A DNA stretch of 64,000 nt from an uncultured virus (IMG/VR IMGVR_UViG_3300042376_001667) (Duplodnaviria; Heunggongvirae; Uroviricota; Caudoviricetes): IMG/VR virus record IMGVR_UViG_3300042376_001667. One strand, given 5' to 3'. The position numbers were made by a program, and so were the translations under genes. A model generated the notes under the pieces. It saw only the letters and a program-made list of their open reading frames with translations. It was not told the DNA's origin and did not search any database. Numbering within the stretch: position 1 is the first letter of the stretch; each line of letters opens with the position of its first letter. Positions 4,169 to 49,782 of this stretch are shown here, one piece after another.

Positions 4169-4313
4169 CAAATATGCAAAATTAGCGGCCTCAGGGCGCA
4201 CTCGGGGCCGTTCCGAGTGGGGTGGCCAAGGCACGCCAAAAAAGTTGCAAGTAGGGTACTTTCTGGCCCAACATGGGGTACTTTAGGAGACTGCAGTGTA
4301 CGACACCAGCTAA

Positions 4314-4329
4314 CCCGTTAACTTAACCC
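4314..4329 (+). promoter_or_regulatory. variant copy of repeated motif (CCCGTTAACTTAACCC), candidate phage RNAP promoter
   Basis: 14/16 identical to the exact copies at 24193 and 49001; intergenic, upstream of a strongly codon-biased gene. Confidence 0.55.
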
Positions 4330-4468: not shown

Positions 4469-5044
4469 ATGGAATTGCGTCAAGTATTCACCACCCCCGA
4501 TGGCAAGACTTTCGACACCAAGGCTGAGGCTTTGACCTATCTGCGTCGTCCTAAGATCAAAGAGGCGATGATGAAGGTTACGGGTGGTAATGCTGAGCTT
4601 TCTGACTGGTTGATTGAAAACCAGGAGAAGGTCGAGGTGGCTTTTGAGACTGGCACCATTCGGCGTGTTACTAAGAGCGAACACAACAAGCTTGCTAAGG
4701 CTTTGGATGCTATGAAGGAAATTCAAGGGAATTCCAAGATTGCTTTCCTGCAAGAAAATGCAGGTGCGATTCTGGATTCGTTCCGTTGGCCTTCCGTCAA
4801 GCGCATGGATGAAGCTGAAAAGGCAACGGCTGCGCGCAACACTCTGGTTGCTGCTAGCGAAGGTAACGAGAAGCTGGCTGAGTGGGTTCTTGGTAACAAG
4901 GACGCTATCCTGGCTGCTTATGAGGCTGGTATTGAGAAGAAGCAGATTAATGCTAAGGCTCAAGAAGGTCTTGCTGCTTATCGCGCTAAGATGGCTGCTC
5001 AAAAGGCAGCTGCAGCTGCAGCTGAAGGTAAGGCCGCAGAGTGA
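4469..5044 (+). CDS. hypothetical protein, probably highly expressed
   Basis: AAGGA RBS before ATG 4469; GCT/AAG/CGT codon bias like the capsid gene; Ala/Lys-rich C-terminus. Confidence 0.8.
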   Translation: MELRQVFTTPDGKTFDTKAEALTYLRRPKIKEAMMKVTGGNAELSDWLIENQEKVEVAFETGTIRRVTKSEHNKLAKALDAMKEIQGNSKIAFLQENAGAILDSFRWPSVKRMDEAEKATAARNTLVAASEGNEKLAEWVLGNKDAILAAYEAGIEKKQINAKAQEGLAAYRAKMAAQKAAAAAAEGKAAE

Positions 5045-8242: not shown

Positions 8243-8244
8243 TT

Positions 8245-9941: not shown

Positions 9942-9951
9942 AGGAAACACT

Positions 9952-10411: not shown

Positions 10412-10489
10412 CTGCCCGTAGCTCAGTTGGACAGTAGCAACAGCCTTCTAAGCTGTAGGTCAGTGGTTCGAGTCCACTCGGGCAGGCCA
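10412..10489 (+). tRNA. tRNA-Arg(TCT)
   Basis: CTGCCCG/CGGGCAG acceptor, ACAGC-CTTCTAA-GCTGT anticodon arm, GTTCGAGTC, CCA. Confidence 0.93.
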
Positions 10490-15683: not shown

Positions 15684-15750
15684 GAACACCTTAAACCGTA
15701 AACTTGGTAGATTACTTTACTGTAGCATAAACATCAATATAGGAGTAAGC

Positions 15751-15978
15751 ATGAAATGGCATAAAGGTCCTCCACCAAGTATTGGATGGTGGCCTGCTAG
15801 TATAGAAAGAGACCCGGAAGTATTTCGCTGGTGGAACGGCGAGTGGTGGAGTATAGATGCCTATCAAAGTAACTCTGAAAAATATGCAGAGCAGCTTGCT
15901 AATCGTAAAGCGCTTTGGCAACATTCTATTGAATGGACCACTCGACCTAAATGGTGGCCTGAAAGGAGCAAAACATGA
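15751..15978 (+). CDS. Trp-rich small protein, family A copy 1
   Basis: AGGAG RBS; MKWHKGPPPSIGWWPAS...RWWNG...WPERSKT; paralogous to 22910 and 23137. Confidence 0.75.
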   Translation: MKWHKGPPPSIGWWPASIERDPEVFRWWNGEWWSIDAYQSNSEKYAEQLANRKALWQHSIEWTTRPKWWPERSKT

Positions 15979-16261: not shown

Positions 16262-16387
16262 GTGAGAGAGAAGTATGAAGGACAAGGGCTAGAGCGATTT
16301 GGCTGGACCTTAATAACACTCGCCGTAATTGGAGGATTGTCTTTGGCGGGATGGCTTGGCTGGGGGTTGTGGAAATGGTTGAGTTAA
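16262..16387 (+). CDS. small predicted membrane protein (41 aa)
   Basis: GGAGG RBS, GTG start overlapping previous stop; hydrophobic WTLITLAVIGGLSLAGWLGWGLWKWL. Confidence 0.5.
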   Translation: MREKYEGQGLERFGWTLITLAVIGGLSLAGWLGWGLWKWLS

Positions 16388-17352
16388 TCACGCTGCACCG
16401 AACCACGGTGCAGCAGGCGCTGGAGGCGTTGGAAAATCTATACCTCACGCTGCCGCCAGAAACCGTACTGGCAAAAAGCCTAGACCGCAGAATCATGAAC
16501 CTCAAGGCCGCGCTGGAGCAGCCGGAGCAGCCAAACCCCTGGCGCGATGCCGTAGACCATGAGCTTTTAACCCTGCACATGGTCGCCAGCGATGACCCAC
16601 AAGAGTCCATTCGGCGCTTGATTGATTGGCATTGCGCTGTGCAGATCGACCCCCTGGTTTCATCCGCTGCGCAGGAACTGATTGAGCGCGGGAAGCGGGA
16701 GGCGCTGGAGCAGCCGGAGCCTGATGCCATCGAACAAGCACTGGCGCACGCAGAAGCATTCAGCCGTGGGCACGATGCCGGCTGGCAATCGGCTATTGCG
16801 CACCGCGCCGAGCTGGCAGAGCCGGAGCAGGAGCCGGTGGCTCGGTTTGACGAGCGATACGGTGGACCAGTCTTGCTGGCAAGTGCGCCGATGTTGTGTG
16901 ACGGCCAACTGTTATATACCCACCCACCCCGCCGCGAGGTGGAGCAGCCGGAGCAGGAGCCGGAACTGCGTAAGCTGTTGATCAGTGCAGCCGCTATGGC
17001 GGTGGCTGCGGAGCGCAAGGGAGCGTACCAAGGCGCAAGTTGGGTGGCCGATGCGGTGCTTGAGCAACCGGTGCAGGAGCCTGTAGAAATTAAGCCACCT
17101 AACCAAGAAGGATCCTCTACATGCACCGTTCGTTGGACAATTGAGACGCCAGCCGGTTGGATCGGTGCATGGGATAAAGAAGCGTTAGAACAATTTAGTT
17201 ACGTATTTCGTAAGCCGGTTGCCTGGCGTTACAAGTCTAAGGAAAGTATGCCATGGTCACTGTCAGAGGATAGTTTTTACATATCGTGCAAACGTGATAA
17301 AGGCTACATCGTTGAGCCTCTTTATAATCTTCTACTTGACGGAAGGAGTTAA
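16375..17352 (+). CDS. mosaic hypothetical protein with EQPEQEP repeats
   Basis: GC-rich segment; repeated LEQPEQ/EPEQEPVA units and LYTHPP/PVAW motifs typical of proteobacterial prophage accessory genes. Confidence 0.7.
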   Translation: MVELITLHRTTVQQALEALENLYLTLPPETVLAKSLDRRIMNLKAALEQPEQPNPWRDAVDHELLTLHMVASDDPQESIRRLIDWHCAVQIDPLVSSAAQELIERGKREALEQPEPDAIEQALAHAEAFSRGHDAGWQSAIAHRAELAEPEQEPVARFDERYGGPVLLASAPMLCDGQLLYTHPPRREVEQPEQEPELRKLLISAAAMAVAAERKGAYQGASWVADAVLEQPVQEPVEIKPPNQEGSSTCTVRWTIETPAGWIGAWDKEALEQFSYVFRKPVAWRYKSKESMPWSLSEDSFYISCKRDKGYIVEPLYNLLLDGRS

Positions 17353-22683: not shown

Positions 22684-22917
22684 ATGACTAAGAAATTTTG
22701 TGTAAACTGTACGCATTATGTTGACAGCTTTTGTTTCCACCCTAATAATGGTATTAATCCCGTAACAGGACTAGGTTTTGAAAGAGAGCCACTTAGAAAC
22801 AGGACTTCAGATAAGGCTTGCGGGTGGGAAGGTCTTTGGTGGCAAAGCCGACATGAAGCCTGTACAGAATCAAAGAATACTATGGAGATTGTTAATGAAA
22901 TCTTTAAATATGATTAA
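22684..22917 (+). CDS. Cys-rich protein, family C copy 1
   Basis: KKFCVNC...CFHPNNG...CGWEGLWW. Confidence 0.7.
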   Translation: MTKKFCVNCTHYVDSFCFHPNNGINPVTGLGFEREPLRNRTSDKACGWEGLWWQSRHEACTESKNTMEIVNEIFKYD

Positions 22918-23140
22918 ATGGCATAAAGGACCCCCACCTTCTATTGGTTGGTGGCCTGCGAGCCATTGTAAAGATGAAAACACATTGCGCTGGTGGAATG
23001 GAAAATACTGGGGTCTTTCAGTAAACTCGACGTATGATATCAAAGATGTAATTCAATTTGCAAAGGTAAAAGCGCCTTTTCAAGACGGTATTGAATGGAC
23101 AGATAGACCTTCTACTTGGCCAGAAAGGAGTAGGACATGA
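22910..23140 (+). CDS. Trp-rich small protein, family A copy 2
   Basis: MIKWHKGPPPSIGWWPAS...WTDRPSTWPERSRT. Confidence 0.75.
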   Translation: MIKWHKGPPPSIGWWPASHCKDENTLRWWNGKYWGLSVNSTYDIKDVIQFAKVKAPFQDGIEWTDRPSTWPERSRT

Positions 23141-23367
23141 CTAAATGGCATAGAGGTCCGCCACCCTCTATAGGTTGGTGGCCTGCTGATTTCTCCAAAA
23201 ATATTTCTGTATTGCGTTGGTGGAATGGGCAACATTGGAGTATTGGAGTAGCTTCGTCTTTCAGCATGGCAGACGTAAGATATTGTGCACATATCAAGGC
23301 CTTTAACCAAGACTTTATTCTATGGACAGATAGACCTTCTACTTGGCCAGAAAAGAGTAGGACATGA
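23137..23367 (+). CDS. Trp-rich small protein, family A copy 3
   Basis: MTKWHRGPPPSIGWWPAD...WTDRPSTWPEKSRT. Confidence 0.75.
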   Translation: MTKWHRGPPPSIGWWPADFSKNISVLRWWNGQHWSIGVASSFSMADVRYCAHIKAFNQDFILWTDRPSTWPEKSRT

Positions 23368-23717
23368 CAAAATTTTGTAAAGACTGTAAATTTATTAAGC
23401 GTACTACAAGGGTTGCAAGCGTTTGTAGTCATCCTAATAATGGTCTAAGTCTTGTAAGCGGCCAACCCCTTCATAAATCCCCAGCTGAAAATCGTTCTAA
23501 TTCTCAAAGTTGCGGTGAAGAAGGTAAATGGTGGGAACAGCTGCATCATGAGTATATTGTATATGAGTTTGTTTGGACAACATTGGGAGGAATTAAGACA
23601 TATGAGACTTCGGAAGAAGATTTCGAAAAGGCTTTGACAAAAGCTAAAAATATGGGTTATAAACCTCGCAAATGGTATAATCCGCTTACTTGGCAAAACC
23701 ATCACACGCTAGATTGA
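23364..23717 (+). CDS. Cys-rich protein, family C copy 2
   Basis: KFCKDC...CSHPNNG...CGEEGKWW...ALTKAK.MGYKP.KWYNP. Confidence 0.7.
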   Translation: MTKFCKDCKFIKRTTRVASVCSHPNNGLSLVSGQPLHKSPAENRSNSQSCGEEGKWWEQLHHEYIVYEFVWTTLGGIKTYETSEEDFEKALTKAKNMGYKPRKWYNPLTWQNHHTLD

Positions 23718-23732
23718 CTCAAAGCTAATTGT

Positions 23733-24086
23733 ATGACAAAACTTTGCATTCATTGTAAATTCTTTGAAGAAACTGGGCCTTTTAAAGATTGTCGTCATTA
23801 TAATAACGGCGTCAACTTAGTTGATGGAATAACAATTCGAAATTCAGCGTTTGTAAATAGAAGTAACTCATCACAGTGCGGCGAAGAAGGCAAATGGTAT
23901 GAAGAGAAAGAGTATCTAATTACATTTGAGTTCCGAAGGCTTACTTTAACAGGTTTTGATTATCAAGTGCTTTCAAGAAAACACTTCCATGAAGCTTTAA
24001 CTAAAGCTAAACAGTTTGGCTATAAACCTTGCAAATGGTACAATCCATTTACTTGGTTTAATTCTCACCGTATAGCTAGTTCTTAA
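23733..24086 (+). CDS. Cys-rich protein, family C copy 3
   Basis: KLCIHC...CRHYNNG...CGEEGKWY...ALTKAK.FGYKP.KWYNP. Confidence 0.7.
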   Translation: MTKLCIHCKFFEETGPFKDCRHYNNGVNLVDGITIRNSAFVNRSNSSQCGEEGKWYEEKEYLITFEFRRLTLTGFDYQVLSRKHFHEALTKAKQFGYKPCKWYNPFTWFNSHRIASS

Positions 24087-24088
24087 TA

Positions 24089-24162
24089 CTCTTCCACTGA
24101 CTACCCTTTATGGGTGGTTGGTGGAGGAGACCCCTCTTTTTTTTTTTTTTTTTTTTTTTTTT
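24089..24162 (+). terminator. long terminator-like hairpin plus 26-nt poly-T tract
   Basis: 18-bp stem CTCTTCCACTGACTACCC/GGGTGGTTGGTGGAGGAG (four G-U) then T26 at 24137-24162, ending the early gene array. Confidence 0.75.
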
Positions 24163-24192
24163 GATAAAATACACAAAATGGCCTTAGCCAAA

Positions 24193-24208
24193 CCCGTTAG
24201 ATTAACCC
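24193..24208 (+). promoter_or_regulatory. repeated motif CCCGTTAGATTAACCC, candidate phage RNAP promoter
   Basis: Exact 16-mer shared with 49001-49016 (flanks AGCCAAA and A also shared); precedes the morphogenesis module. Confidence 0.65.
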
Positions 24209-24520
24209 AAGGACGTTCCTCCCTGAAGATATCACCTAAGGACACCTTAGTTAGTAGTATTGTATTATAGTAATATTATATATAAATATAGTATATAGTA
24301 TTATAAATATAATAAACTAATATAACAAAATATACTTAAAGATAACATTGAAGAAGGTACCTTCTCGATGCCGTCGGTTCGGGCTTTGCGCTAAGTCGAT
24401 GATTTTTAAGGACTTTTTGAAAAGGTTGGAATAAAGTGGTGTTTGTTTTTCTGTGTTAGAAACCTTGCGCCACAGCCGGGAGGAACTCCCTAACAAATAC
24501 CGAATAGGAGCAAGTTTACT

Positions 24521-24706
24521 ATGTTAAGCGTATTAAAATCCAGAACAGTCTGGTATGCAATCATTATTGCAGTGTTATCTGTATTACAAGGCTTTGTGTT
24601 TGCATTACCTGTGACACCGTTTGAACAAGCTATGATTGGTTGTGCAATTGCAGTAGGCATTGTTATTTTACGTGCTATCACAACACAGCCGATTAATCAA
24701 AAATAA
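24521..24706 (+). CDS. putative holin
   Basis: AGGAG RBS; 61 aa with two hydrophobic segments, KSRTVW N-terminus and LRAITTQPI C-terminus. Confidence 0.65.
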   Translation: MLSVLKSRTVWYAIIIAVLSVLQGFVFALPVTPFEQAMIGCAIAVGIVILRAITTQPINQK

Positions 24707-24751
24707 ATAGTGGAGTTAGATCTCCTGGTTGTTAATCTAAATTAATACACA

Positions 24752-25204
24752 ATGAATGATGTAATAACTCAACCTGAGCTTCCAAGAGGCCGAACTCCAG
24801 GCAAACCAGTTTATGCACTCGGAGCTAAGCGCTCGGTTGCGAGATTAAAGGCCTTAGGATATGATCCTATCGGTTCCTTAGTGGATAAATACAATGAGCT
24901 TGAAGATGAGCTCAAAAGACAAAAGAAAATTCGTAGCAATGAACTTGTGGAATTAACTGCGTCTGGAAGGCCTCGTGCTTATAATCCAGAAACGCTAATG
25001 GCCATCTATGAAAAGCAAATTAATATTGCACAAAACCTACTTAGATACGGTTACGGGCGTGTTCCTGAAAATACGCTGGAGACACCTAAGACTGTTAAGC
25101 CTATGATAGTCAATTTGACTAAAAAGGGTGAAACATACATAGTTAACGATACACCAGATGAGGATTTTGGTTATGAAGACGATGAAACCGATTTATCTGA
25201 ATAG
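24752..25204 (+). CDS. putative terminase small subunit
   Basis: Upstream of TerL; GRTPGK N-terminal motif, LGYDPI, helical core, acidic tail. Confidence 0.55.
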   Translation: MNDVITQPELPRGRTPGKPVYALGAKRSVARLKALGYDPIGSLVDKYNELEDELKRQKKIRSNELVELTASGRPRAYNPETLMAIYEKQINIAQNLLRYGYGRVPENTLETPKTVKPMIVNLTKKGETYIVNDTPDEDFGYEDDETDLSE

Positions 25205-25501
25205 TCAAGCAGGAATTGACCTTTATAGCTATCTAAAAAATGTTCTTGCATTTCCAGATAACTGTTTAGAGGTAACTATAAAGCTTAAACACAATGACAT
25301 GATTCAAGTTGATTGTCTTTATTATCCTAGGGGTCCTAATTGTGAACCAGTTTCAGAAACCTTTAGTGTGTTCCCCAGCCAACAATCCTGATCTTTTTAA
25401 TTATTTGTGTCAAAGAGTGCTTGGGCAGAATGTTCAGCAATTCACCACAAATACTATTAGAGGCTTTAGGATCGAACCTGTTTTTACTAAAGAGGTCGAA
25501 G

Positions 25502-25720
25502 ATGCCAGACCAAAGAACTCTTGACACTTTAGACTTAGAAACAGTGAATAAAGTGTTAGACCAAACACTTGAACAATCTATTCAATCAGAGAGAAGCTTT
25601 GATGCTATACAAAGCTTTCTAACAAATTACAAGATTAATTTAGAGCATGTCGCTAAATCAAATCAAAAAGAAACTTCGATGCAATATGAAAGTTTCTATC
25701 GGATTACTAATTTAATTTAG
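25502..25720 (+). CDS. hypothetical protein
   Basis: GAGG RBS before ATG 25502; ends just before TerL. Confidence 0.55.
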   Translation: MPDQRTLDTLDLETVNKVLDQTLEQSIQSERSFDAIQSFLTNYKINLEHVAKSNQKETSMQYESFYRITNLI

Positions 25721-25722
25721 AG

Positions 25723-27069
25723 ATGTCAATAAATCTGCATGAAGGTCAATCGGAAGTATATGAAGACTTATTTGTAAACAAGGATTGTAGGTTTGCAGCT
25801 GTGTGTTGTTCACGTGGTTGGGGCAAGTCCTATCTAGCTGCCACTGCTGCAGTTACTGCTGTGTTCGAGCTCATGGCTCTTGAGGCATACATCCCCAATA
25901 AGACCGTTTACATTATTGCGCCTACGTATGATCAAGTGACAGATATTTACTATCCACTGATCAATTACGATTTAGGTATTGAAGACCACGCAATTAAGTC
26001 TTCTAGAGATCTGGGAAGATTTATATTTCCACGAAATGTTGAATTAAGGCTTTTGTCTTATGAAGCAGTCGAAAGAATGCGGGGTAAAGGTGCCTATTTT
26101 GTTGTGTGGGACGAAGTCTCCTCCTGCAAAAAAGGAATTACCCCAAAAGAAGCTTGGGAAGGTGTCATCCAACCTACCATCATTACTCGGTGGTCCAACA
26201 AACGGGCGGCTGCATACGGTGCAAAATCGCCTGGAAGAGCCTTAATCATTAGTACTCCAAAGGGTTTTAATTACTTTCATGAGATGCATACTTATGAAAG
26301 TATTAATAACAATTGGAAATCATATCATTACGACTACAAGAGCTCTCCATTTCTAGATATTGATGAAATTGAGAGACTTAAGCATACGCTTGATCCTATC
26401 GAGTTTGCATCAGAATATCTTGCGTCTTTCCAAGAATCTGGTAAGACTGTATTTTATTGCTTTGACAGAAAGAAACATGTCAAGAGTGATCTACCCTATT
26501 TCGATCCTCCAAAAGATGATGAAATGGGTGAAGATGTTCATGTAAACATAGACTTTAACGTAGGACTTCAATGTTCTTCAGCATTTGCACTTCGAGGAAA
26601 ACAAATCCATATCCTTGATGAATTCAAAGGTCATCCAGATACTGAGACTTTAGCTAATGTCTTGAAAGAGAAGTATAAAGGACATCGTATTTTTGCTTAT
26701 CCAGATCCTTCTGGCAGAGCACGTAAAACTTCTGCCCCTGTGGGTAGAACAGACTTTAGTATACTAGAAGCTGCAGGCATTCGTTGTCTTGCACACCCAA
26801 AAGCTCCTCCAATTATTGATTCAGTTGCTGCAGTCAACAAAAAACTTTTAACTGCTGCTGGCGACATAGGAATGTATATTTCTTCCAAGTGTACAGGTGT
26901 TATTATGTCTTTAGAACGTACTAAGTGGGTTGACAATAACTCTGATACTGCTGTAATTGATAAGTCTGAGAGTCTCGAACACTTCTCAGACGGTATTCGT
27001 TATGGTACTGAATACTTATTCCCTGTACAACAAGGTACTAAGAGAGTTTCTAGAGGCTTTAATTTCTAG
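25723..27069 (+). CDS. terL: terminase large subunit
   Basis: LHEGQ Q-motif, Walker A CSRGWGKS, Walker B VVWDE, ISTPKG motif III, nuclease IDFNV and HFSDGIRY. Confidence 0.95.
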   Translation: MSINLHEGQSEVYEDLFVNKDCRFAAVCCSRGWGKSYLAATAAVTAVFELMALEAYIPNKTVYIIAPTYDQVTDIYYPLINYDLGIEDHAIKSSRDLGRFIFPRNVELRLLSYEAVERMRGKGAYFVVWDEVSSCKKGITPKEAWEGVIQPTIITRWSNKRAAAYGAKSPGRALIISTPKGFNYFHEMHTYESINNNWKSYHYDYKSSPFLDIDEIERLKHTLDPIEFASEYLASFQESGKTVFYCFDRKKHVKSDLPYFDPPKDDEMGEDVHVNIDFNVGLQCSSAFALRGKQIHILDEFKGHPDTETLANVLKEKYKGHRIFAYPDPSGRARKTSAPVGRTDFSILEAAGIRCLAHPKAPPIIDSVAAVNKKLLTAAGDIGMYISSKCTGVIMSLERTKWVDNNSDTAVIDKSESLEHFSDGIRYGTEYLFPVQQGTKRVSRGFNF

Positions 27070-28167: not shown

Positions 28168-28749
28168 ATGATAAAAAATCCATTCCCATTTAGTTTTCCG
28201 TTTAATTATCCGCCTGTGATGCTAACGCCACAGCCGATGTTACCAATTCCTCCTCAAATTATTGATGATTCAGACATTAATATACACCATACAGGAGGTA
28301 CTGGTCAAATAGGTCCTCCTGGACCACAAGGTGAGCAAGGACCTCCAGGGTTGCCGGGTGAGCAAGGCCTAACAGGACCTCAAGGTGTTCCTGGAATGCA
28401 AGGGCCTAAGGGCGATACTGGTCCACAAGGGCCTCCAGGACAAAGAGGTCCTGATATAGATTGTTGTAATACAAATACTAGATTAATTTCCGAAGATTAC
28501 GCAGCTACAACTAAGGATTGGTACATAGGTGTCAATTCAAAGAAGGCTGTTAAGATAACCTTACCGATGCTTCCCTCAGATGGAATGCAGATTATTGTTA
28601 AGTTAGAAATGGGTGCTCCTATTGGAAATAGGAAAGTCACTATTGTAGGTATTCCATCTAAAATAGATGGTAGTAATGACAAGGTGCTACAAGAGCCTTA
28701 CGAAAGTATTGTATTAATCTATCGGGAAGGTTGGAATGTAATAAAATAG
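28168..28749 (+). CDS. collagen-like triple-helix repeat protein (fibre/decoration)
   Basis: About 17 consecutive G-X-Y triplets ([16 protein letters not shown]...). Confidence 0.85.
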
Positions 28750-30655: not shown

Positions 30656-33600
30656 ATGCCTAACTTAACTTATAGAGCATCATTAACACCTGCAATACCT
30701 GCATCAACTACTGTAAAAGGCACGGGCTTAACCAATTTAGAAATTGACGCTAATTTCAAAGCTCTTGATGATGAGGTCAGTAGCTCATTTCCAAGAGTTG
30801 GCGATGTGATGATTGGTAGCCTAATAGATTTTGCTACAATTCGTTTTGGTTCTAAATATCTTAGTAAAGCAGATGGAAAAGTTCCATGGTTTTCTGGTGG
30901 GGGGACTATAACTAGGCAACAGTATATAGGTACGTCAGTTGGGAGATACTGGAAAAGACTCTTCTTAGAGGCTAGTACTTCATCCCCTTTATTATACGCT
31001 TTTTCTTCAACTGGCAATATGTACATGACAAGTCCTAATGGTACAACTTGGACAACACGTACAGCACTTGATGGATATAATAATGTAGCTTTTAGTAAAC
31101 TATCAGGTGGAACTCAAAATTCTATTTTCATACTCCAATCTCCGAATTACGCAGGCTATTATACTTCTTTAAATGGAATAACGTGGTCATTTGGTGGAAA
31201 TTTCCCAAACACTAAATTTGTTGATAGTAGCTCTAATAATTTTAGTATTACTACTAATGGTAATCCTACTCAAGTTGCCTTAAATCCCTTTATACCTACA
31301 GGGTACTGGAGTGGGTATTTTGATGGGACGGGGGATTATCTTGCGGTTGCGGACAACGCCGCGTTTGATCTTGCCGCTAGTAATTTTAATGTTGAGACTT
31401 GGGTCAACTTTTCGGCCTTGCCAGCAGCAAGTGGCGCGGCGACTTTTGTAAGTCAATGGCCGCAATCTCCAGCAACTAATAGAGGCTGGTGGTTTTATCT
31501 GTTTAATAGCGCAGGAACATATCAACTTTATTTGACATATTCAACAAACGGAACGGCTCAAACAAACCTTGGCGTCAGTTTGCCGTCTGCACCGGCTATT
31601 GGAACTTGGAACCATGTTGCGTTTGTTAGGTCAGGAAACAATTTCCTGGTGTTTTGGAATGGAACGCAAGTTGGAACGACTCAAACATTAAGCGCCACCA
31701 TATTCAACAGCGCGGGCGAAGTGTGGATAGGGGCTCAAAATGAGTCCGCCGTCAGTTCTCCGCTAACGGGCTACCAGTCCAACACTCGCATCGTCAAAGG
31801 CACAGCCGTCTACACCGCGAACTTCACGCCTCCCACTTCCCCGCTGACGGCCATTGCGAACACCTCTCTGCTGTGCTTACAAGATAATCGCTTCAAAGAT
31901 AATAGTACGAATGCATTTACTATTACAAGGAATGGTGATGCTCGAGTAAGTGAAATTGCACCGTTTGCGCTAACATCACCTCTTAATGCATATGGGGGTA
32001 GTACATTTCTGAATGGCTCCTCCGACGAATTGTTAACACCAGACAGTGCTATTTTAGACTTAGGTTCTTCTGATTTTACATTAGAAGTTTTCAAATATCA
32101 ACTAAGTGGTGAATTTGGATTTATAAGTCAAGCAGGCTCTTTAATAATTTCATCTTTGGCTGGCAATATACTAATTAGAAACAATGCTACTAATATTTTA
32201 GCTGTTTCATATACGCCGTTAATGGGTCAATGGGAATATATTTCAATAATCCGTAGTGGTACGACTTTATCAATTTTTCAAAACAATACCAGAATAGGTA
32301 CCGTTACCACAAGTACTGTATTTGCTGCAGCAGGTTCTAAACAAATGCGGCTTGGTTTTAATAGCTTAGGTGGTACTTATTTTAACGGAAATTTTTCAAA
32401 CATTCGTCTTGTTAAAGGTTCTGCATTATCTGACCCAAATTTAACAACAATTACTGTGCCAACAGCACCTTTTACTGCTATAACAAATACTCAACTTTTA
32501 TTAAATACTAATAATACAACTAACTGGTCATTTGTTGATAAATATCTAAATGGCTTTATAACAATTGCTAATAACTCTAATACACTATATACTTCTGCAG
32601 ATGGAACAACTTGGACATCAAGCACTGTCTCGGCGACTAAGACATTCTTAGGTTCAGCTTATTCTACTCAAATTGACAATGCTAATGATCCGAGCATTCT
32701 TATGATGACATCTTCTACAGATACAAACGTAAGCGTGCGATCAGGGTCAACATGGACAGAACGTAGTTTACCCGCATCCGCTGGAGAATCTTTGACTAAA
32801 CCAATTTATTTTAAACGATTATTTTTTATATTTAGCAGCACCAGTAACTCTAATGCTTATTGGACTTCTTCTGACGGAACAACATGGACTAAAAGATTTT
32901 TACCTTTATCAACAGCCTTTAAATTTCCTGTTGTAAGCGGTGGAACCTTGTTTATAATGAGCCGAGTCCCTGGCTCTTACACTACATTCCTTTTAGGAAC
33001 AACGCCAGCTACAACAAATGCAATTTTTGCCTCTCAGGATGGCTTTAATTGGACAGGTACAATTAATGGTTTGACAAACACATTTTCTGGATATCTTAAT
33101 TGGATTTTAGAAACTGCAGATTCAGCAGTTATTCGTGGAAATATTGTTAATGTAAATAACTACCAAGGTGGCGTTTCTGAACCAGGCATATCTAATTATT
33201 ACCCAGTAGACTCTACAGTGTACTTTGACACAACAGTAGCAGCACCTTCGGGAGCCGATTATTGGGTGTCAAATGGTAGTATTGCAGTCGGTTTTATCGA
33301 TAGTGTAAACTATTATACAACAACTGATTTCAAAACATTTACTGCAAGAACAATATCAGGTTTTAGTAATATCCGAGCTTTAAGGTACTTTAGTAATGAA
33401 TTTATTGTTTTTGGGACCGGATCTTATGGAAAATCTTCCGATGGAATCAATTGGACAGTAATTACTGGAAATGCTGGATACACTACAATTTTTCAAAATA
33501 TTAATAACCCCAATGCAACTGGTTATCAAAATTTTATCAACAATATTTTTTATGCAAATGGTTTGTATATTTTTTGTACTACTCAATTATACTCAAGTCC

Positions 33601-34294
33601 AAGCAGACAAGGCTTATATACTTCTACAGATTTAATAACCTGGAACTCTTACACATTTCCTGTAAGCACTACAAACTGGCCATCAAGTGTCATTGAAATA
33701 AAGTACTTAAACGGGAATTATATAGTAAGTGTAGGCTATAATGGTGGAGGTGGTTATGGTTATATGTTGTATACGACTGACTTTATAACTTATAATTCTA
33801 CAGGTATTAGTTATAATTTTTATACTGCCGGTTCTTTAACTCCCAGAGCGTCTATATTCTTTTATGATAATAGTTACTACGCAATACTTAGTACTGATAA
33901 TTCCGAGACAGCAACCCAATACATTGCGAAATCTTCAACCATGGCTGACGGGACTTGGACTACTATTTCCACAGGATCCAACAGAAGAGCTCATATAATT
34001 AATTTTGATAATTCTAGCGGCACTGGCTATATTGTAAGTCATAGCGGTATTACTATATTACACACAATAAGCTCAGCTATTAGCGAAACTAATTCAGATA
34101 ATTCATATACACAGTTTGCTGATGGTATTTCAAGAGCTCCAATAAATGTTGGTATTTTTAATGGTAATATGGTTATATATGATTTAAATACAAGAACATT
34201 TGGCACAGTTCGCATATCAACATCGCTTCGTAGAAAACCATTACTATCTAACTTGTCTTCTGAAGTTGGCAGTTATTACGTTAGAGAGGTATAA
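30656..34294 (+). CDS. fibre/receptor-binding protein with ConA-like (LamG) domains and Asp-box repeats
   Basis: N-terminal KGxxLTNLEIDANF anchor; two LamG-like units (FDGTGDYL...FNVETW...WNHVAFVRSG); repeated SxDGxxW Asp-boxes. Confidence 0.85.
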   Translation: MPNLTYRASLTPAIPASTTVKGTGLTNLEIDANFKALDDEVSSSFPRVGDVMIGSLIDFATIRFGSKYLSKADGKVPWFSGGGTITRQQYIGTSVGRYWKRLFLEASTSSPLLYAFSSTGNMYMTSPNGTTWTTRTALDGYNNVAFSKLSGGTQNSIFILQSPNYAGYYTSLNGITWSFGGNFPNTKFVDSSSNNFSITTNGNPTQVALNPFIPTGYWSGYFDGTGDYLAVADNAAFDLAASNFNVETWVNFSALPAASGAATFVSQWPQSPATNRGWWFYLFNSAGTYQLYLTYSTNGTAQTNLGVSLPSAPAIGTWNHVAFVRSGNNFLVFWNGTQVGTTQTLSATIFNSAGEVWIGAQNESAVSSPLTGYQSNTRIVKGTAVYTANFTPPTSPLTAIANTSLLCLQDNRFKDNSTNAFTITRNGDARVSEIAPFALTSPLNAYGGSTFLNGSSDELLTPDSAILDLGSSDFTLEVFKYQLSGEFGFISQAGSLIISSLAGNILIRNNATNILAVSYTPLMGQWEYISIIRSGTTLSIFQNNTRIGTVTTSTVFAAAGSKQMRLGFNSLGGTYFNGNFSNIRLVKGSALSDPNLTTITVPTAPFTAITNTQLLLNTNNTTNWSFVDKYLNGFITIANNSNTLYTSADGTTWTSSTVSATKTFLGSAYSTQIDNANDPSILMMTSSTDTNVSVRSGSTWTERSLPASAGESLTKPIYFKRLFFIFSSTSNSNAYWTSSDGTTWTKRFLPLSTAFKFPVVSGGTLFIMSRVPGSYTTFLLGTTPATTNAIFASQDGFNWTGTINGLTNTFSGYLNWILETADSAVIRGNIVNVNNYQGGVSEPGISNYYPVDSTVYFDTTVAAPSGADYWVSNGSIAVGFIDSVNYYTTTDFKTFTARTISGFSNIRALRYFSNEFIVFGTGSYGKSSDGINWTVITGNAGYTTIFQNINNPNATGYQNFINNIFYANGLYIFCTTQLYSSPSRQGLYTSTDLITWNSYTFPVSTTNWPSSVIEIKYLNGNYIVSVGYNGGGGYGYMLYTTDFITYNSTGISYNFYTAGSLTPRASIFFYDNSYYAILSTDNSETATQYIAKSSTMADGTWTTISTGSNRRAHIINFDNSSGTGYIVSHSGITILHTISSAISETNSDNSYTQFADGISRAPINVGIFNGNMVIYDLNTRTFGTVRISTSLRRKPLLSNLSSEVGSYYVREV

Positions 34295-34642: not shown

Positions 34643-34908
34643 ATACTAAACCTGCAGAGCATGTTTTTAAACTATTCTTAAAAACTTTTAAATACAAAGC
34701 TATAACAATGCCTTGGAAAACAGTTTATGTACTAAAAGATGAGCTCAATAATAAAGGCCTTTTAGCACATGAGCAAATCCATATAAATCAAATTGAAAGA
34801 CTTGGCAGTTTAAAGTTCATATCTTTATATCTGTGGTATAATCTGAAATACGGTTACTATAATAATCCACTAGAAATAGAAGCTAGAACTTTGTCGGGAT
34901 ACAGTTAA
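34639..34908 (+). CDS. small HExxH protein
   Basis: LLAHEQIH...GYYNNPLEIEA. Confidence 0.6.
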   Translation: MNTKPAEHVFKLFLKTFKYKAITMPWKTVYVLKDELNNKGLLAHEQIHINQIERLGSLKFISLYLWYNLKYGYYNNPLEIEARTLSGYS

Positions 34909-34919
34909 ACGAGGTTTGA

Positions 34920-44313: not shown

Positions 44314-47300
44314 ATGGCGAATAACGCTAATACTGATATATACGACAGAACGATAAACAGAGCTGCAATGATCAGGCTCTATGAAAGACGTATTAACGAG
44401 AAAGTAGAATCAATAATAAACGAACATACTGGTAGGCTTGACGGAATTGTCCGTGACGGAGACTTATCAGTTAAAGGTCGAAATAAATTGTTTGAGGCAA
44501 TTGATAAAGAATTGCTTAAAACTCATAAAGAAACATTTAATGTTACAAAACGTTCATTGCTTGATTTAGTTTCTGATCAACTGTCATACACTTATCAGAC
44601 AGTTGAAGTTGCAATGAGTAAAATTTGGCGTACAGAAAGACCTGCTAAAAGAGTTGCTGAAGATATTGTTCTTCAAAGACCTTTATATCAAGATCAAACT
44701 CTAGCTGCTGGTTGGGCTAGCGTTAGTACAGCTGAAAAGAAGCGGCTCGAAGCTTTAATTCGAAAAGGTATAGCAGAAAATCATACAATCGACGAGATAG
44801 CTTTAGACCTCCGAAAAGGAAATATTCACAATATAACAAGATCACAATCAAAAGGTCTTGTTGTAACTGCCGTAACCTCAGTTACTTCGCAAACTGACCA
44901 CGAAGTTTATAAGGCTAATAGTCAAGCTATTAGAGGTTGGCAGTATGTTTCTGTGCTAGATTCTCGTACAACACCAATTTGTATACACAGAGATGGTAAG
45001 ATATATGATATGTCTGAGACCTCTTATCTGCCTCCTGCACATTTTCATTGCAGATCGACAACCGTGCCTGTTTTTAAATCTTGGGATGATATTTCCAAGC
45101 TAGAAGGTGTAGCTCAAATACGCCGACGTAATATTGAGAATTTGAGCAAAGATCAAATATCATATTATGACGGACAAACGCCTTTGCGAGAATCTTACAA
45201 TTCTTGGCTGCTTCGTCAGCCTAAAGACGTTCAACTAAAACATCTAGGTGATTATCAAAAAGTTGAATTGCTTAATAGTGGTCAGTTAACTTTAGACAGA
45301 TTTACTAATCCAGAAGGCAACTCCGTCGGTATAAAAGAGCTCCGCGCCATTACAGATAGTGGCTATACATTGCCAAATGACACTAAGAGATTTGCAATTG
45401 CAAAAGAAAAATTAGATGCAATGCAATTAGGAGCAAGTACACCTGACGACTTTATCGATAATGAGAAGCTTCGTAAAACATTGGTGGATTATTACTTGTT
45501 ACAAAGCGCAGAGTTGAACGGGACACTATCGCTAACTAACTATCGAGGTGTTCTTACAAATGTCAAACGTGGCGTTAAAAATCGGGTATTAACGTCTCCT
45601 CCTCGAGAAGACCAACTAAAGTTCAATCCGATAACAGGACGATATGAAGACGTTAGATTATATCAACCAAATTCAGCTGTCTTGGCTAACAACACAAGAC
45701 TTATCCAAGAAAGTGATAAGTTATTGGACAGAGACAGGGAATTTATATCTAAAGTCTTGGATGGTCTTTCTGAGAAAATGAGTGTAAACGAAAGAGCTGT
45801 TGTCGCGGACAATCTTCGAATTATCTTTAGCAGATACAGAGATAACAAAGAGCCCTGGACAAATTTTAAAGCGGTAGTTCAAGGTCAAATAAAGTTTGAT
45901 GTAATGAACGTTTCGGATGCTATTGAAACTCAAATTCGAAAGGATTCTGATGTTTTAAAGAAGCTTCTTCAGGATAACTACTTAGATCCTGTTTTAGGTC
46001 CTACACAGTTACAGGAACTTCATGATAATTTCATTTCTAATATTCTTGCAAGAAATAAGTGGGAAGATAAAACAGCTCCTAAAATCGCGCAGGAATTAAG
46101 AACAGTATTTGATTACAAAATACCCGCTAAAATACGTTTAAGGGTATCTGACCGCGATTTGCAGCAATTCTATTTAAAGTTTGCTCATCGTTTGAGCTTA
46201 GCAGATTCGCCAGATAGAGACAGCTTTGCAGTTTCGTTAGGAAGAGATCTTTACAATCTTGCAAATTTTAATGGCAATCGGCGTGAATGGTACGATCTTG
46301 GCATGAAACTCTTAGAAGCCAAGAACGTTAAGAAATTCTTCGAAGTTGAAACTTTCGGTGTTCAAAAGCGAAGAATGAAAAGCAGACTAAGCGGTCAATA
46401 TTTTGGTCCGTACTATGATGCGTTATCTTATAATATTAGAATTGTAGATCCTAGAATTCAAGAGTACGCTAAGCTAAATAGAAAAGTTGAACTTGGTCTT
46501 CGAGTTTCTGTAACAGAAGACAAAAATAGGCTTCTATTTAGAGAAGGCTACAAAACATATTTCATTGATAGAGGAATTTTAGGGTTAGAAGATACAAGAA
46601 TTCCAATTACATCAACTAGCAGCTTTAGTGATTTCCCTGAAGAATTTGTAGACAAAAATCTAGTTGATGCTTTGAATTGGGCTTCCAAAGCTAAGTATAA
46701 AATTGACGAAGACTATTTTGATTTTACACAAAAGTTATTATATTTTGAGGACGACAAGGGTCAAGCTAAAAAGTATAATGATTTGAATGAATATCGAAAA
46801 TATATTTCAAGCCGTGGCGACGCTTACGAGCGTTTTAAGGCAATGGAATGGCTTCGTAAAGATGACAAGGCGTTTAGTAATCATCCTTTTATTGATCATC
46901 GAGCACGTATTTATGATCGTGGTTTAATCGGTCCTCAGTCTGGTGAAACATTTAGACCCTTTCTAAATACAGATGTAGCTAAGAACTTTAGTCCCGAAGA
47001 TTTTGAGAACTTTCAAGATCAGATCGGATCTTTCTTAGGAGGACTTAGCGATTACTTTGAGGGAAAGTTTAATTCTCTATCAATCACAGGAAGACAGAAG
47101 ATAGCAGAAAAGTGGCGTCCTGAGCTTGTTCGCATTGGCAATCACATGCTTAGAAAGAAACCAGCAGATATTCGTGCTATTTTAGAATCTGAAATATTTC
47201 AAAAAATTGATGGCGAAGAACTTAATAAGTTTTTGCGTTTTGCGTTAGAGACTGCTAAAATTGATAATTACTTAGCAACTGACAGTCTCGGTTCAAAGTA

Positions 47301-48993
47301 TTCAGTTAAAAACCTTCAAAGGCTTCGTGATTACAAAACAGCGCTAGCCTTAGAACAAGATGCTTCGTCTTCTGGCGCTCAGATTATTGCATTAACGACT
47401 CGTAATAAACAGCTGGCAGAACTTAGCAATGTAGTCCCTACAAACCAAAAGAAACGTTTGTATGACGAAATTGCGGCATTAACTTATAATGATCCTAGGT
47501 TTAGAGAACTCAACCAAAAGTTAGGCTTAAATGAAAAAGATTTGAGAAAAGCTTCTAAGGCGCAAAACATGGTAACATTCTACGGCGCTGGCGAAAAAAC
47601 CAGTGGCCTAAATGTAGAAGGTAAACTGTCTAAGGTTTTAGATAAGCAAGAGAATGTCTTAGTCGTCAAGGCTTCTGAAAGAGATGTAGTTCTTAATGAG
47701 ATTTCTGCAAGAATTGCAAGATACGAAAAATTTGATCCAGAAACTGCCGAGGAACTTCGACAATTACGACAAAATGTCAGAGACATTTTTAATAAAGGTT
47801 TAGATCCTGGCGATGAAATTTTAGATCAGCTTTATTTTCTAGAACCTAAAACAAAAGAACTTGTTGAGAAGTTGTCTCAGTCGTACGAAAAAGTAGTTAC
47901 ACCTGATGATTTTAAAGCAATTGCTAGAATCATGAGTGAATACTTATCAGAGCAAGTCCCTATACTTAAAGATTTTACTAGGTATTTTGGTAGATTAGCT
48001 GAAGATTATTTGGCAAATGCAAAACCGTCAAATAGTGACTTTGATTGGGAATCTATTGCAAAAACACAATTAGTCGGTACAAGACAAAAGGGCTATACGC
48101 TACCTGATAATGTAAGCAGATTACTAGGTGTAAAAGCAGGTGAACCTGTATCAGAAAAACTGCTCAAAAGATTTGGCTTTTGGAATCCCAATGGCACATT
48201 AGCTCAAATTATTTTTGGTGTAGATTCTCCTGAGTATCGTCGAACTGGCGCTAAATATCTTAAAACTGAAATCATTGTCCCGACAATCGATCTTAAAAAG
48301 GGTGCATTAGCTAAAGAAGTCTCCCTTAGTGGATTTGAAGTATTTAAGGCAAATAAACTACCTAAAAGCTGGACGAATGTGCCTTGGGTTAATTTTGATG
48401 GTAAAATTATTGAACAAAATTTTACACAATCTTTTGAAGAACGACTTGTTTATAAAGATAAATATGGTAACTGGACTACTAACATATTGCAGCTACCGCA
48501 GAAAACTGAGATATCGTGGGTAGATACGCTGATTAACAAGTCGGGAAAGATTAACGATATTGCTGACCTAACTCGTGCAAGAACAGCATTCGCAGTTAAT
48601 GGCAATCACTCTAATGATGCTGTAATTGTTAAAAAATTTCATCTTTGGGGTAAGAAAACAGGTGTTCCAACTTCTACTATTCATGATGCCTTCTTTACTA
48701 ATGCAGCAGATATGCTTACTGCAAGGTCAGCCTTGAAAGAGATCTATGCAGACGTGTTAGATAAGAATGTTATCAAGATGACGCTAGATGAAATGAAAGC
48801 CAGAGGTTTGCCTAAGGAGTTATATGATAAGTATCTTGAAGAAGCTATTGAAAAAGGTTTAATACCTATTCCAGGAAAATCTAGAGTTGGTGATAAAATT
48901 TTAAATGAAAAAGACATACTGAATAGAAAAGATATTTTAAAGGAAATTCCTAAAGGTTTTTCCAATGACTATGGATGGTACGGTGTTGGCTAA
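44314..48993 (+). CDS. MuF/SPP1-gp7-like minor head protein fused to T7-type single-subunit DNA-dependent RNA polymerase
   Basis: MuF core WQYVSVLDSRTTPIC...DG...PPAHFHCRST (aa ~209-249); RNAP motifs DHRARIY (aa 861), A EQDASSSGAQ (D1016), B RKASKAQNMVTFYG (aa 1078-1091), AVNGNHSNDA, C TIHDAF (D1458). Confidence 0.9.
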   Translation: MANNANTDIYDRTINRAAMIRLYERRINEKVESIINEHTGRLDGIVRDGDLSVKGRNKLFEAIDKELLKTHKETFNVTKRSLLDLVSDQLSYTYQTVEVAMSKIWRTERPAKRVAEDIVLQRPLYQDQTLAAGWASVSTAEKKRLEALIRKGIAENHTIDEIALDLRKGNIHNITRSQSKGLVVTAVTSVTSQTDHEVYKANSQAIRGWQYVSVLDSRTTPICIHRDGKIYDMSETSYLPPAHFHCRSTTVPVFKSWDDISKLEGVAQIRRRNIENLSKDQISYYDGQTPLRESYNSWLLRQPKDVQLKHLGDYQKVELLNSGQLTLDRFTNPEGNSVGIKELRAITDSGYTLPNDTKRFAIAKEKLDAMQLGASTPDDFIDNEKLRKTLVDYYLLQSAELNGTLSLTNYRGVLTNVKRGVKNRVLTSPPREDQLKFNPITGRYEDVRLYQPNSAVLANNTRLIQESDKLLDRDREFISKVLDGLSEKMSVNERAVVADNLRIIFSRYRDNKEPWTNFKAVVQGQIKFDVMNVSDAIETQIRKDSDVLKKLLQDNYLDPVLGPTQLQELHDNFISNILARNKWEDKTAPKIAQELRTVFDYKIPAKIRLRVSDRDLQQFYLKFAHRLSLADSPDRDSFAVSLGRDLYNLANFNGNRREWYDLGMKLLEAKNVKKFFEVETFGVQKRRMKSRLSGQYFGPYYDALSYNIRIVDPRIQEYAKLNRKVELGLRVSVTEDKNRLLFREGYKTYFIDRGILGLEDTRIPITSTSSFSDFPEEFVDKNLVDALNWASKAKYKIDEDYFDFTQKLLYFEDDKGQAKKYNDLNEYRKYISSRGDAYERFKAMEWLRKDDKAFSNHPFIDHRARIYDRGLIGPQSGETFRPFLNTDVAKNFSPEDFENFQDQIGSFLGGLSDYFEGKFNSLSITGRQKIAEKWRPELVRIGNHMLRKKPADIRAILESEIFQKIDGEELNKFLRFALETAKIDNYLATDSLGSKYSVKNLQRLRDYKTALALEQDASSSGAQIIALTTRNKQLAELSNVVPTNQKKRLYDEIAALTYNDPRFRELNQKLGLNEKDLRKASKAQNMVTFYGAGEKTSGLNVEGKLSKVLDKQENVLVVKASERDVVLNEISARIARYEKFDPETAEELRQLRQNVRDIFNKGLDPGDEILDQLYFLEPKTKELVEKLSQSYEKVVTPDDFKAIARIMSEYLSEQVPILKDFTRYFGRLAEDYLANAKPSNSDFDWESIAKTQLVGTRQKGYTLPDNVSRLLGVKAGEPVSEKLLKRFGFWNPNGTLAQIIFGVDSPEYRRTGAKYLKTEIIVPTIDLKKGALAKEVSLSGFEVFKANKLPKSWTNVPWVNFDGKIIEQNFTQSFEERLVYKDKYGNWTTNILQLPQKTEISWVDTLINKSGKINDIADLTRARTAFAVNGNHSNDAVIVKKFHLWGKKTGVPTSTIHDAFFTNAADMLTARSALKEIYADVLDKNVIKMTLDEMKARGLPKELYDKYLEEAIEKGLIPIPGKSRVGDKILNEKDILNRKDILKEIPKGFSNDYGWYGVG

Positions 48994-49000
48994 GCCAAAT

Positions 49001-49016
49001 CCCGTTAGATTAACCC
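49001..49016 (+). promoter_or_regulatory. repeated motif CCCGTTAGATTAACCC, candidate phage RNAP promoter
   Basis: Exact copy of 24193-24208; just after the RNAP stop and upstream of the scaffold-capsid operon. Confidence 0.65.
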
Positions 49017-49098
49017 AGGTGAGAATCTCCACAGATAACATCTGATTTTAAAATAAAGATTGTATCTTTATTAAATGAGTCGTACTCAAGGAAACAAA

Positions 49099-49782
49099 AT
49101 GTCAACTGATACAAATCAAGAAGATCAAAACAACGTCGATGACTCTTCATCTGACAAGAGCACAACTGAAACTAACAAGGACACTACAGCAGGCTCAGCA
49201 GATCCTGTTGAGAAGCTTGTAGAATCTCGTGTTCAGGAGGCTCTTAAAGATATTAAGCTGAAGCTCGATAAAGCATATAGCGTCAGAGATGAAGCTTTGC
49301 GTAAAGCTGCTGATATTGAGCAAGCTAGAAAACAAGAAGAGATCAAGCGACTTCAAGAGGATGGTAAGCATAAAGAAGCACTTGAACTGCAACTTGCGGA
49401 AGAGAGGGCACAGAGAGCTGCATATGAAAAACGTGTCGTAGAACTAACACGCGACATGGACCTCAAAAATGCGCTAAGCACTTACTCTTTCAAAAATGAA
49501 AATGCCTTCAGTATGGCATATCGTGAAATTGTGGATCAACTCGCCCAAGATGACAAAGGAATTTGGAGACACAAATCGGGTGTATCTCTTAAAGACTTTG
49601 TAAAGCAATTTGCAGATGATGAAAACAATGCTTTCTTGCTGAAACCTAAAGTATCTTCTGGTTCTGGCAGTTCGACAACGAAGGTTAAAGATTCTTCGAG
49701 TGGTATGTCCGGAAAGTCTATTTTCGAATTACCGCAAGACGAAGTTTTGAAACTCGCTAGAGAAGGCAAATTGAGAAAATAA
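49099..49782 (+). CDS. capsid scaffolding protein
   Basis: AAGGA RBS; acidic N-terminus, coiled coil, SSGSGS linker near the C-terminus; immediately before the capsid gene. Confidence 0.8.
   Translation: MSTDTNQEDQNNVDDSSSDKSTTETNKDTTAGSADPVEKLVESRVQEALKDIKLKLDKAYSVRDEALRKAADIEQARKQEEIKRLQEDGKHKEALELQLAEERAQRAAYEKRVVELTRDMDLKNALSTYSFKNENAFSMAYREIVDQLAQDDKGIWRHKSGVSLKDFVKQFADDENNAFLLKPKVSSGSGSSTTKVKDSSSGMSGKSIFELPQDEVLKLAREGKLRK

Follow-up and report, generated by a model that had tools for sequence, protein, structure and literature searches.

A conserved intergenic motif as candidate promoter of a phage RNA polymerase in an uncultured long-tailed phage and its relatives

Why would a phage genome repeat one short sequence at the boundaries of its gene blocks, and which enzyme would read it? 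These questions are raised by a stretch of 64,000 nucleotides from the uncultured virus record IMGVR_UViG_3300042376_001667 (Caudoviricetes; a lake-type phage), which was analysed over its whole length and is called the window hereafter. In an earlier note on this DNA a 16-mer, CCCGTTAGATTAACCC, had been singled out as the candidate promoter of a phage RNA polymerase (RNAP), either the MuF-RNAP fusion protein encoded in the window or another phage RNAP encoded outside it. A motif search recovered the two exact copies (24193–24208 and 49001–49016, both on the + strand) and the 14/16 variant (4314–4329, + strand) on which this proposal was based. The common flank, AGCCAAA(T) before the motif and A after it, was also seen as claimed. 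Together with the two bases preceding them, the copies of this motif A are:

4312..4329, + strand: copy 'M2', AA-CCCGTTAACTTAACCC, a two-mismatch match 140 nt 5' of the gene at 4469–5044
24191..24208, + strand: copy 'L1', AA-CCCGTTAGATTAACCC, an exact match heading the packaging and tail-fibre/portal/MuF-RNAP block
48999..49016, + strand: copy 'L2', AT-CCCGTTAGATTAACCC, an exact match between the MuF-RNAP stop codon and the scaffold gene

The map of open reading frames (ORFs) agrees that all three copies are intergenic, apart from one spurious ORF. M2 lies between the DHH-phosphoesterase gene (3099–3941) and the gene at 4469, and L1 between the gene at 23733–24086 and the one at 24521, about 310 nt 5' of the latter. 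L2 is placed 8 nt 3' of the MuF-RNAP stop (48993) and 59 nt 5' of the ATG at 49075. The sole ORF overlapping L1 (24118–24270) reads through a T run and is the spurious one. A fourth match with three mismatches (28711–28726, − strand) is located inside an ORF on the opposite strand and is most simply a chance match. When up to three mismatches are allowed, dinucleotide-preserving shuffles of the window (n=100) give an expectation of 0.22 matches, as opposed to the four found, and none of the 100 shuffles reached that number. Scanning the window with up to five mismatches did not yield any further credible intergenic copy on the + strand.

Conservation of the motif was assessed through the homologues of MuF-RNAP, which occur in more than 400 related stretches of a viral contig collection. 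From these, 57 loci were taken, 50 of which include the 3' end of the gene. The motif stands 7–50 nt past the last aligned MuF-RNAP codon in each of these 50 loci, and in 47 of them it begins 7–12 nt after the stop codon. The match to the consensus CCCGTTAAATTAACCC is exact in 36 loci, with one mismatch in eight, two in four and three in the remaining two. Among 32 non-redundant sites the mean pairwise identity amounts to 0.93 within the motif versus 0.32–0.39 in the flanking 15-nt blocks. The family consensus is an 18-nt conserved block, A-N-CCCGTTAAATTAACCC. For a logo, 134 non-redundant sites were gathered by the core pattern, which fixes the core columns beforehand; the one independent conserved base that the logo adds is the A two positions upstream (130 of 134), and nothing else in the flanks is conserved. 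Within the 16-mer, positions 8 and 9 vary, the window having G at 8 or C at 9. The motif is retained in contigs that range from 32% to 65% G+C. A nucleotide search with positions 23000–26000 against named phages gave no match, and the nearest record (G001), a 20-kb fragment that falls between two motif copies, contains none, as expected.

Copy number and orientation were then compared across genomes. Four of the five near-complete relatives carry 4–5 copies at up to two mismatches, and the fifth (G006), which has its own variant, carries one. All 19 copies in these five genomes point in the direction of the genes, and a reversed-pattern control gave none; in the window's phage, essentially all genes are on the + strand. 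In a second set of five contigs, four contigs of the RNAP family hold 2–6 copies each, with 14 of 14 on a single strand per contig. One exact copy of the 16-mer in G009, an unrelated 44-kb contig without RNAP, is attributed to chance, given the very large size of the collection. Synteny alignments of the window with G002 (88–96% identical over the shared parts) and with G003 and G004 (about 65–78%) revealed that the copies take five recurrent positions:

E: after the last tail gene, heading a run of small early genes
M1: 0.5–1 kb downstream of a second RNAP gene, heading the replication genes
M2: some 120 nt 5' of the gene homologous to 4469 (G002, G003, G004)
L1: 1–2.3 kb before the large terminase gene (e.g. 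G003 62717, G004 379)
L2: immediately 3' of the MuF-RNAP gene, ahead of scaffold and capsid genes

The copies in the window are M2, L1 and L2; judging from G002, E and M1 of the window's phage should be located beyond the right end of the window, the two predicted copies falling about 23.7 kb and 34.9 kb past 49001. The distance from motif to start codon is generally 29–140 nt, with L1 and its first gene (about 310 nt) outside this range. At M1 sites a start codon with its own ribosome-binding site follows the motif after 29–41 nt, so the transcript for that gene must start within about 15 nt of the motif. Many contigs have tandem motif pairs, 46–114 nt apart. Each class of sites also has a G-rich sequence 2–8 nt 3' of the motif, AGGTG at L2, AAGGACG at L1 and E, and TC-N3-6-GAGGG at M1, which may mark the transcription starts. 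Furthermore, sites within one genome share their variants. EBPR siphovirus 1, whose fusion protein is 59% identical, has NCCGTT-N3-TTAACCC at three places (ACC, ACC and TCC); one of them precedes the terminase gene by about 550 nt, and another follows the polymerase gene at a distance of 78 nt. G006 has a GCT variant at L2, at E and at a more diverged copy with three mismatches just downstream of the second RNAP gene, and L266 shows GCT at both of its sites. This is the pattern that a genome-encoded reader would impose.

At L1 the motif is preceded by a further element:

24089..24162, + strand: intrinsic-terminator-like element composed of an 18-bp hairpin (24089–24129), ACCCCTC and 26 T (24137–24162), from RNA folding and a terminator scan

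The hairpin is a perfect 18-bp stem (−36.4 kcal/mol, z −6.1, 0 of 200 shuffles equally stable), and the element ends 30 nt 5' of the motif. Hairpins with T runs also occur upstream of the E sites in relatives. The 26-T run is the sole homopolymer run of at least 12 in the window, and in the early region of G002 hairpins near 38664 and 43306 are likewise followed by long T runs, the one near 43306 lying a short way 5' of the second RNAP gene.

Taking together conservation, strand bias, synteny, the order of terminator and motif, the tandem copies and the variants shared genome-wide, we consider it very probable that the motif is a promoter for one or the other single-subunit polymerase of these phages. 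The comparative evidence thus bears out the proposal of a promoter read by a phage-encoded single-subunit RNAP. Two other functions had to be weighed against it. The motif could mark the ends of blocks, as a sequence-specific signal for termination, pausing or RNA processing, since every copy at a block boundary is also at the end of the preceding block, and the L2 copy follows the MuF-RNAP stop after just 7–12 nt. We regard this as very improbable. A strong hairpin with T run is already in place upstream of the motif at 24193 and at the E sites, the tandem duplicates and the constrained distance to the next start codon suit promoters, and no RNA or DNA structure is present in the motif. Its inner palindrome, GTTAA-A-TTAAC, was considered as a hairpin or cruciform and rejected for want of stability: the best fold is a 4-bp A/T stem of −0.1 to −0.4 kcal/mol, which 73–131 of 200 shuffles match. 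An intrinsic terminator was rejected likewise, as the motif is unstructured and a separate strong terminator stands upstream.

Alternatively, the motif might be bound by a phage activator or sigma-like factor that steers the host RNAP, with TTAACC replacing the −35 box in the manner of the MotA box at T4 middle promoters. In the E class (31 non-redundant sequences) a C run and T-N-TATTAT follow about 16–17 nt after TTAACC, which amounts to a sigma-70-like geometry, and over all sites TAnnnT hexamers are about twice as frequent at spacers of 14–21 as at most other offsets. Yet the −10-like box is limited to the E class and absent elsewhere in the genomes, the 29–41 nt between the M1 motif and its start codon are too short to accommodate spacer, −10 box and leader, and a block of 16–18 nt that stays identical from 32% to 65% G+C is more than a −35 element needs. 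On the evidence of the sites themselves, an activator-type site appears improbable, if somewhat less so than a termination signal, and a sigma-70 promoter at all sites was rejected because of the E-class restriction and the lack of room at M1.

If the motif is a phage RNAP promoter, two polymerases come into question. One is encoded in the window:

44314..48993, + strand: MuF-RNAP fusion gene, 1559 aa, with Pfam PF04233 at residues 145–250 and PF00940 at residues 1405–1498

In G002 this gene has an insertion of about 860 bp (9527–10388) that is absent from the window (corresponding position about 47562), and in EBPR siphovirus 1 an HNH endonuclease gene separates the two halves of the homologue. 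The other polymerase is a canonical T7-like RNAP ('RNAP2'), the product of the second RNAP gene mentioned above. All five relatives searched have it, as an ORF of about 750–930 aa with PF00940 at E values of 1e-32 to 1e-65. The alignment of the G002 RNAP2 with T7 RNAP structures (E 1.7e-38) covers most of the catalytic part and takes in the specificity-loop region. In close relatives the gene is found in the early block and encodes a compact enzyme (about 750 aa); that of G002 (43583–45838) falls within about 26 kb of the genome that the window does not cover. Compared with solved structures by sequence, MuF-RNAP did not match T7 RNAP, and its only polymerase match was N4 RNAPII with a non-significant E value of 0.46. 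MuF-RNAP and RNAP2 share about 30% identity over just 67 residues, which makes a common promoter specificity unlikely.

From these comparisons, it is reasonable to propose RNAP2, encoded outside the window, as the probable reader of the motif, with clearly less assurance than attaches to promoter function as such. In 16 of 18 RNAP2 loci the motif occurs 498–1037 nt downstream of the RNAP2 gene. The only other conserved intergenic element that was detected (see below) is confined to the early region plus one site; motif A is thus the only candidate promoter of a T7-like enzyme before the middle and late genes. As the reader of the motif, the MuF-RNAP fusion, which the earlier note had put first, did not find support, and the note's hedge, another phage RNAP outside the window, turns out to be the better candidate.

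Several points weigh against RNAP2 as the reader. The two most distant RNAP2 loci (47% identity) lack a recognisable motif copy downstream of the gene. Apart from a weak T/A in the logo, no conserved initiation sequence follows the motif, and its 3' end is ACCC instead of an AT-rich −4 to −1 region. The E copy heads the very early block that contains the RNAP2 gene, so RNAP2 cannot act first there and another enzyme is needed. No copy is as well conserved as L2, which may point to a connection with MuF-RNAP. Moreover, the RNAP2 of the window's own phage is deduced from G002, at 88–96% identity over the shared parts. Finally, both polymerases co-occur in every complete relative examined, so that their distribution cannot tell them apart.

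Some of these points would fit a scheme in which the motif is the promoter of MuF-RNAP, with injected and later unpackaged copies of the enzyme transcribing all blocks and RNAP2 reading only the early-region element. The fusion protein does carry a polymerase domain, its gene is followed by the motif after 7–12 nt in 47 of 50 loci, the invariable co-occurrence is compatible with MuF-RNAP as the reader, and an injected enzyme that reads the E copy, at the head of the RNAP2-holding early block, could start the programme. Nevertheless, we consider this scheme unlikely. Early genes are where a virion enzyme would have to act first, yet copies of the motif also head late and replication blocks. Just 2–4 sites, all of them 5' of the RNAP2 gene or next to it, would remain for RNAP2, which would be a strange role for a canonical T7-like polymerase. 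No hairpin forms at the motif, in contrast to the promoters of the N4 virion RNAP, the one virion enzyme of the single-subunit type that has been characterised, and the two polymerases are too dissimilar for a common specificity to be likely. A phage that might separate the two enzymes is Pelagibacter phage Kolga, which has an RNAP2-type enzyme and a MuF protein without polymerase domain. No motif was recognisable in Kolga, whose very AT-rich genome swamped the repeat search.

With RNAP2 as the probable reader of motif A, the question is what would drive the early genes. As de novo counts of 13-mer repeats were too noisy in the relatives, intergenic gaps were compared across genomes. Besides the tRNA genes, this comparison revealed one other conserved element, TGCGGAAAA-N3-GGTATCTTATATGATA. 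It has 2–4 copies per genome, restricted to the stretch from the E site to the RNAP2 gene, plus one between M2 and the 4469 homologue. Its sites are:

G002: 36855, 40911, 41528
G003: 34553, 35553, 54332
G004: 43234, 43899, 63410
G006: 34442, 38214

In seven of eight loci with at least 2 kb of upstream flank the element lies 3.2–4.9 kb before the end of the RNAP2 gene. It shows TTGCGG-N16-TATGAT, a sigma-70-like geometry, with partial dyad symmetry, and is a candidate early promoter for MuF-RNAP or the host RNAP. No intergenic copy was present in the window at up to three mismatches, the corresponding stretch (about 4360–4395) having diverged. At 31 non-redundant contig sites and at those listed here, the E sites bear, in addition, an extension of the motif that consists of about 9 nt, a C run, T-N-TATTAT(AAT) and then a TTAGTTAAT.AGTCC-like sequence:

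G002: 35495–35530
G003: 33587–33620
G004: 42081–42110
G006: 32569–32600

The C-run/TATATT box of these sites is found nowhere else in these genomes. The extension could be a promoter of host type, or one of the fusion enzyme, that overlaps the motif. Hairpin cassettes in the early region of G002 (GTGTTAAT...TAACAC), which look like N4 promoters, were rejected as candidates because they belong to long duplicated segments and occur in G002 only. A 41-nt block is 100% identical between non-coding gaps of the otherwise distant genomes G002 (41716–41756) and G006 (34901–34941). The G002 copy resides in a 475-nt non-coding gap of the early region, and the block possibly belongs to a small RNA or to a mobile element.

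Given two polymerases and two classes of signals, a relay is the simplest fit. In a first step, the early signals, that is TGCGGAAAA-N3-GGTATCTTATATGATA and the extension at the early-block copy of motif A, would drive the early genes including that of RNAP2, their reader being the injected MuF-RNAP or the host RNAP. In a second step, RNAP2 would initiate a few bases downstream of each copy of motif A, recognised as a duplex-DNA promoter, and transcribe long same-strand blocks: the early block (as a feedback), the replication block, the 4469 block, the packaging/portal/MuF-RNAP block and the scaffold/capsid/tail block. We infer promoter function, the reading polymerase and the start sites from comparison of sequences.

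How does this arrangement compare with known systems? The T7/T3/SP6-type phages (Autographiviridae) likewise use a contiguous signal of 17–23 bp that occurs in several near-identical copies, in the direction of transcription and upstream of blocks, and they encode a T7-like RNAP, as do the relatives of the window's phage. The tandem motif pairs are reminiscent of tandem promoters in this group. In the T3 record (NC_003298, seven annotated T3 promoters), the first phage promoter is located 12 nt after the RNAP gene and one promoter is followed by an AT-rich primary origin, both of which have a likeness around motif A. The 8-mer ATTAACCC is common to T3 promoters and the motif, and nothing else of the 23-bp consensus is. 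The claim that the motif resembles no known promoter was therefore nearly right, with this 8-mer to be added and with TTAACC resembling a −35 box in one class of sites only. The motif lacks the TCACTAAAGGGAGA-like 3' half, the AT-rich −4 to −1 region and the fixed G start of the T7 group, and it is placed outside the T3/T7 group. This phage also differs in having about five copies per genome, in being long-tailed with a tape measure instead of a podovirus, and in possessing a second, head-fused polymerase. In function the motif would appear to be akin to a T7-group promoter, although its sequence does not belong to the T3/T7 consensus group.

Phage N4 runs a relay in which the virion RNAP acts at hairpin early promoters, followed by RNAPII and then by the host RNAP. 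The promoters of its virion RNAP form an extrudable hairpin with a 5–7-bp stem and a 3-nt loop. N4 and the present phages are alike in a packaged single-subunit RNAP plus a second phage RNAP, which implies a relay, and in separate early and later signals. In contrast, motif A has no hairpin potential, which argues against recognition of the N4 type, and its copies stand before terminase and scaffold/capsid genes instead of being early-restricted. The second polymerase is a one-piece canonical T7-like enzyme here, and the virion enzyme is fused to MuF and not a 3500-aa protein. In the parts of PMC5512222 considered here, the N4 virion RNAP is described as transcribing the early genes, and MuF fusions and N4-like virion RNAPs are handled as separate topics. 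In phage P23-45 (PMC10770324) the logic is alike: a virion protein carries a fused polymerase, which sets off a cascade that leads to a free polymerase for the later genes. The P23-45 enzymes, however, have their kin among the multisubunit cellular RNAPs, the polymerase is fused to the tape measure, and there is no likeness to the motif.

A further parallel, which also speaks for RNAP2 as the reader of motif A, is provided by the distant cultured relative DSS3_VP1, a roseophage (Naomviridae, NC_055826; L250/L251), which has both polymerases, with identities of 31% (MuF-RNAP) and 34% (RNAP2). Its genome contains 16 copies of a motif, ATAGGGTRCGTTAAAGARGGGG, all on the + strand and mostly 55–85 nt before start codons:

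DSS3_VP1, + strand: 2242, 2333, 6580, 7408, 19202, 19237, 19326, 29396, 38533, 45926, 46393, 46551, 55098, 59196, 67001, 73993

Like motif A, it is repeated on one strand and precedes middle and late genes, and the core CGTTAAA is common to both; the sequence is otherwise different, the copies are more numerous, and the G-rich 3' end is typical of T7-type initiation. Probably, ATAGGGTRCGTTAAAGARGGGG is the promoter of the T7-like RNAP of DSS3_VP1 (gp080). The main text of the DSS3_VP1 paper does not contain the term 'RNA polymerase' and uses 'promoter' once, about an intron. A literature search, which left supplementary files outside, found no paper with the sequence of motif A and none on the promoters or the two polymerases of these phages.

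The genes that follow the motif copies in the window, and further structural genes of the blocks, are:

4469..5044, + strand: conserved 191-aa gene downstream of M2, 74–78% nucleotide identity to G003 and G004
24521..27069, + strand: first genes after L1 (ORF calls), encoding a 61-aa hydrophobic protein, a 150-aa protein, two small ORFs and the large terminase
25723..27069, + strand: large terminase gene (phrog_2, E 1e-31; weak Pfam Terminase_6N match)
40904–42478: portal gene (family search)
49075..49782, + strand: scaffold gene (phrog_206, E 8e-8), downstream of L2
49809..50996, + strand: major head protein gene (phrog_247, E 2.5e-17), downstream of L2
54192–60203: tape measure gene (family search)

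The module contexts that had been assigned to the two exact copies hold for the scaffold and major head genes after L2 and for the large terminase after L1. The label 'holin' for the first gene after L1 is not confirmed, the 61-aa hydrophobic protein (24521–24706) giving no family match. Gene 4469–5044 did not receive a lead from Pfam, PHROG or Atlas. The leader between M2 and this gene includes a five-codon mini-ORF (ATG TTA ATC AAT CAT TAG, 4423–4440) with its own AAGGAG, which is present in the window and G002 and absent in G003 and G004. Folding of the GC-rich 150 nt that precede 4314 gave no support for a structured RNA (z −0.12), and no significant fold was detected in the leader after 49016.

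Two further features lie in the long leader (about 310 nt) that separates the L1 motif from 24521:

24209..24249, + strand: extension 3' of the L1 motif, AAGGACGTTCCTCCCTGA..., common to L1 and the early-block (E) sites of relatives in a side-by-side comparison
24250..24345, + strand: AT-rich tract of 96 nt, 89% A+T

AT-rich tracts similarly follow the L1 and E sites in G002–G004. Because the annotated T3 record has its primary origin directly after a phage promoter, the tract at 24250–24345 could conceivably be a promoter-primed replication origin; a packaging site near the terminase genes is conceivable as well.

Elsewhere in the window, a cluster of six tRNA genes (5516–10489) lies just downstream of M2. 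ARAGORN predicted tRNAs for Met, Thr, Lys, Leu and Arg, Rfam added a sixth at 7286–7355 that ARAGORN had missed, and nothing but tRNAs was found in the window by Rfam. The region 16351–17352 is GC-rich (52% versus about 38% elsewhere) and contains six GAGCAGCCGGAGCAG-like repeats inside a 333-aa ORF without Pfam match. Three paralogous small genes (15748–15852, 22910–23146 and 23137–23373), two of them adjacent, have a common N-terminal stretch and were detected as the nucleotide repeat families D1, D4 and D11.

If confirmed, motif A would be the promoter of an uncharacterised clade of T7-like RNAPs in abundant uncultured long-tailed phages. The transcription units of these genomes could then be delimited from sequence alone, and late transcription would prove to depend on a phage polymerase instead of the host enzyme. 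With motif A and the early-region motif at hand, one could test directly how the work is divided between the polymerase carried in the capsid and the free one. A short promoter that stays the same although the genomes have diverged widely is also a candidate part for orthogonal expression. More tentatively, and with a good deal of doubt, one may picture a widespread lineage of long-tailed phages from freshwater, wastewater and marine habitats that runs a self-contained two-polymerase programme. The injected MuF-RNAP would read a private early signal and give rise to the T7-like RNAP, which in turn would use a near-invariant 18-nt promoter before every block, kept unchanged while the polymerases diverge by about 30% and G+C ranges from 32% to 65%; at the early and packaging blocks, promoter and AT-rich tract may prime replication like the primary origin of T3/T7. 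Were this true, these phages would offer a new orthogonal polymerase–promoter pair and a model of a long-tailed phage that is independent of the host RNAP.

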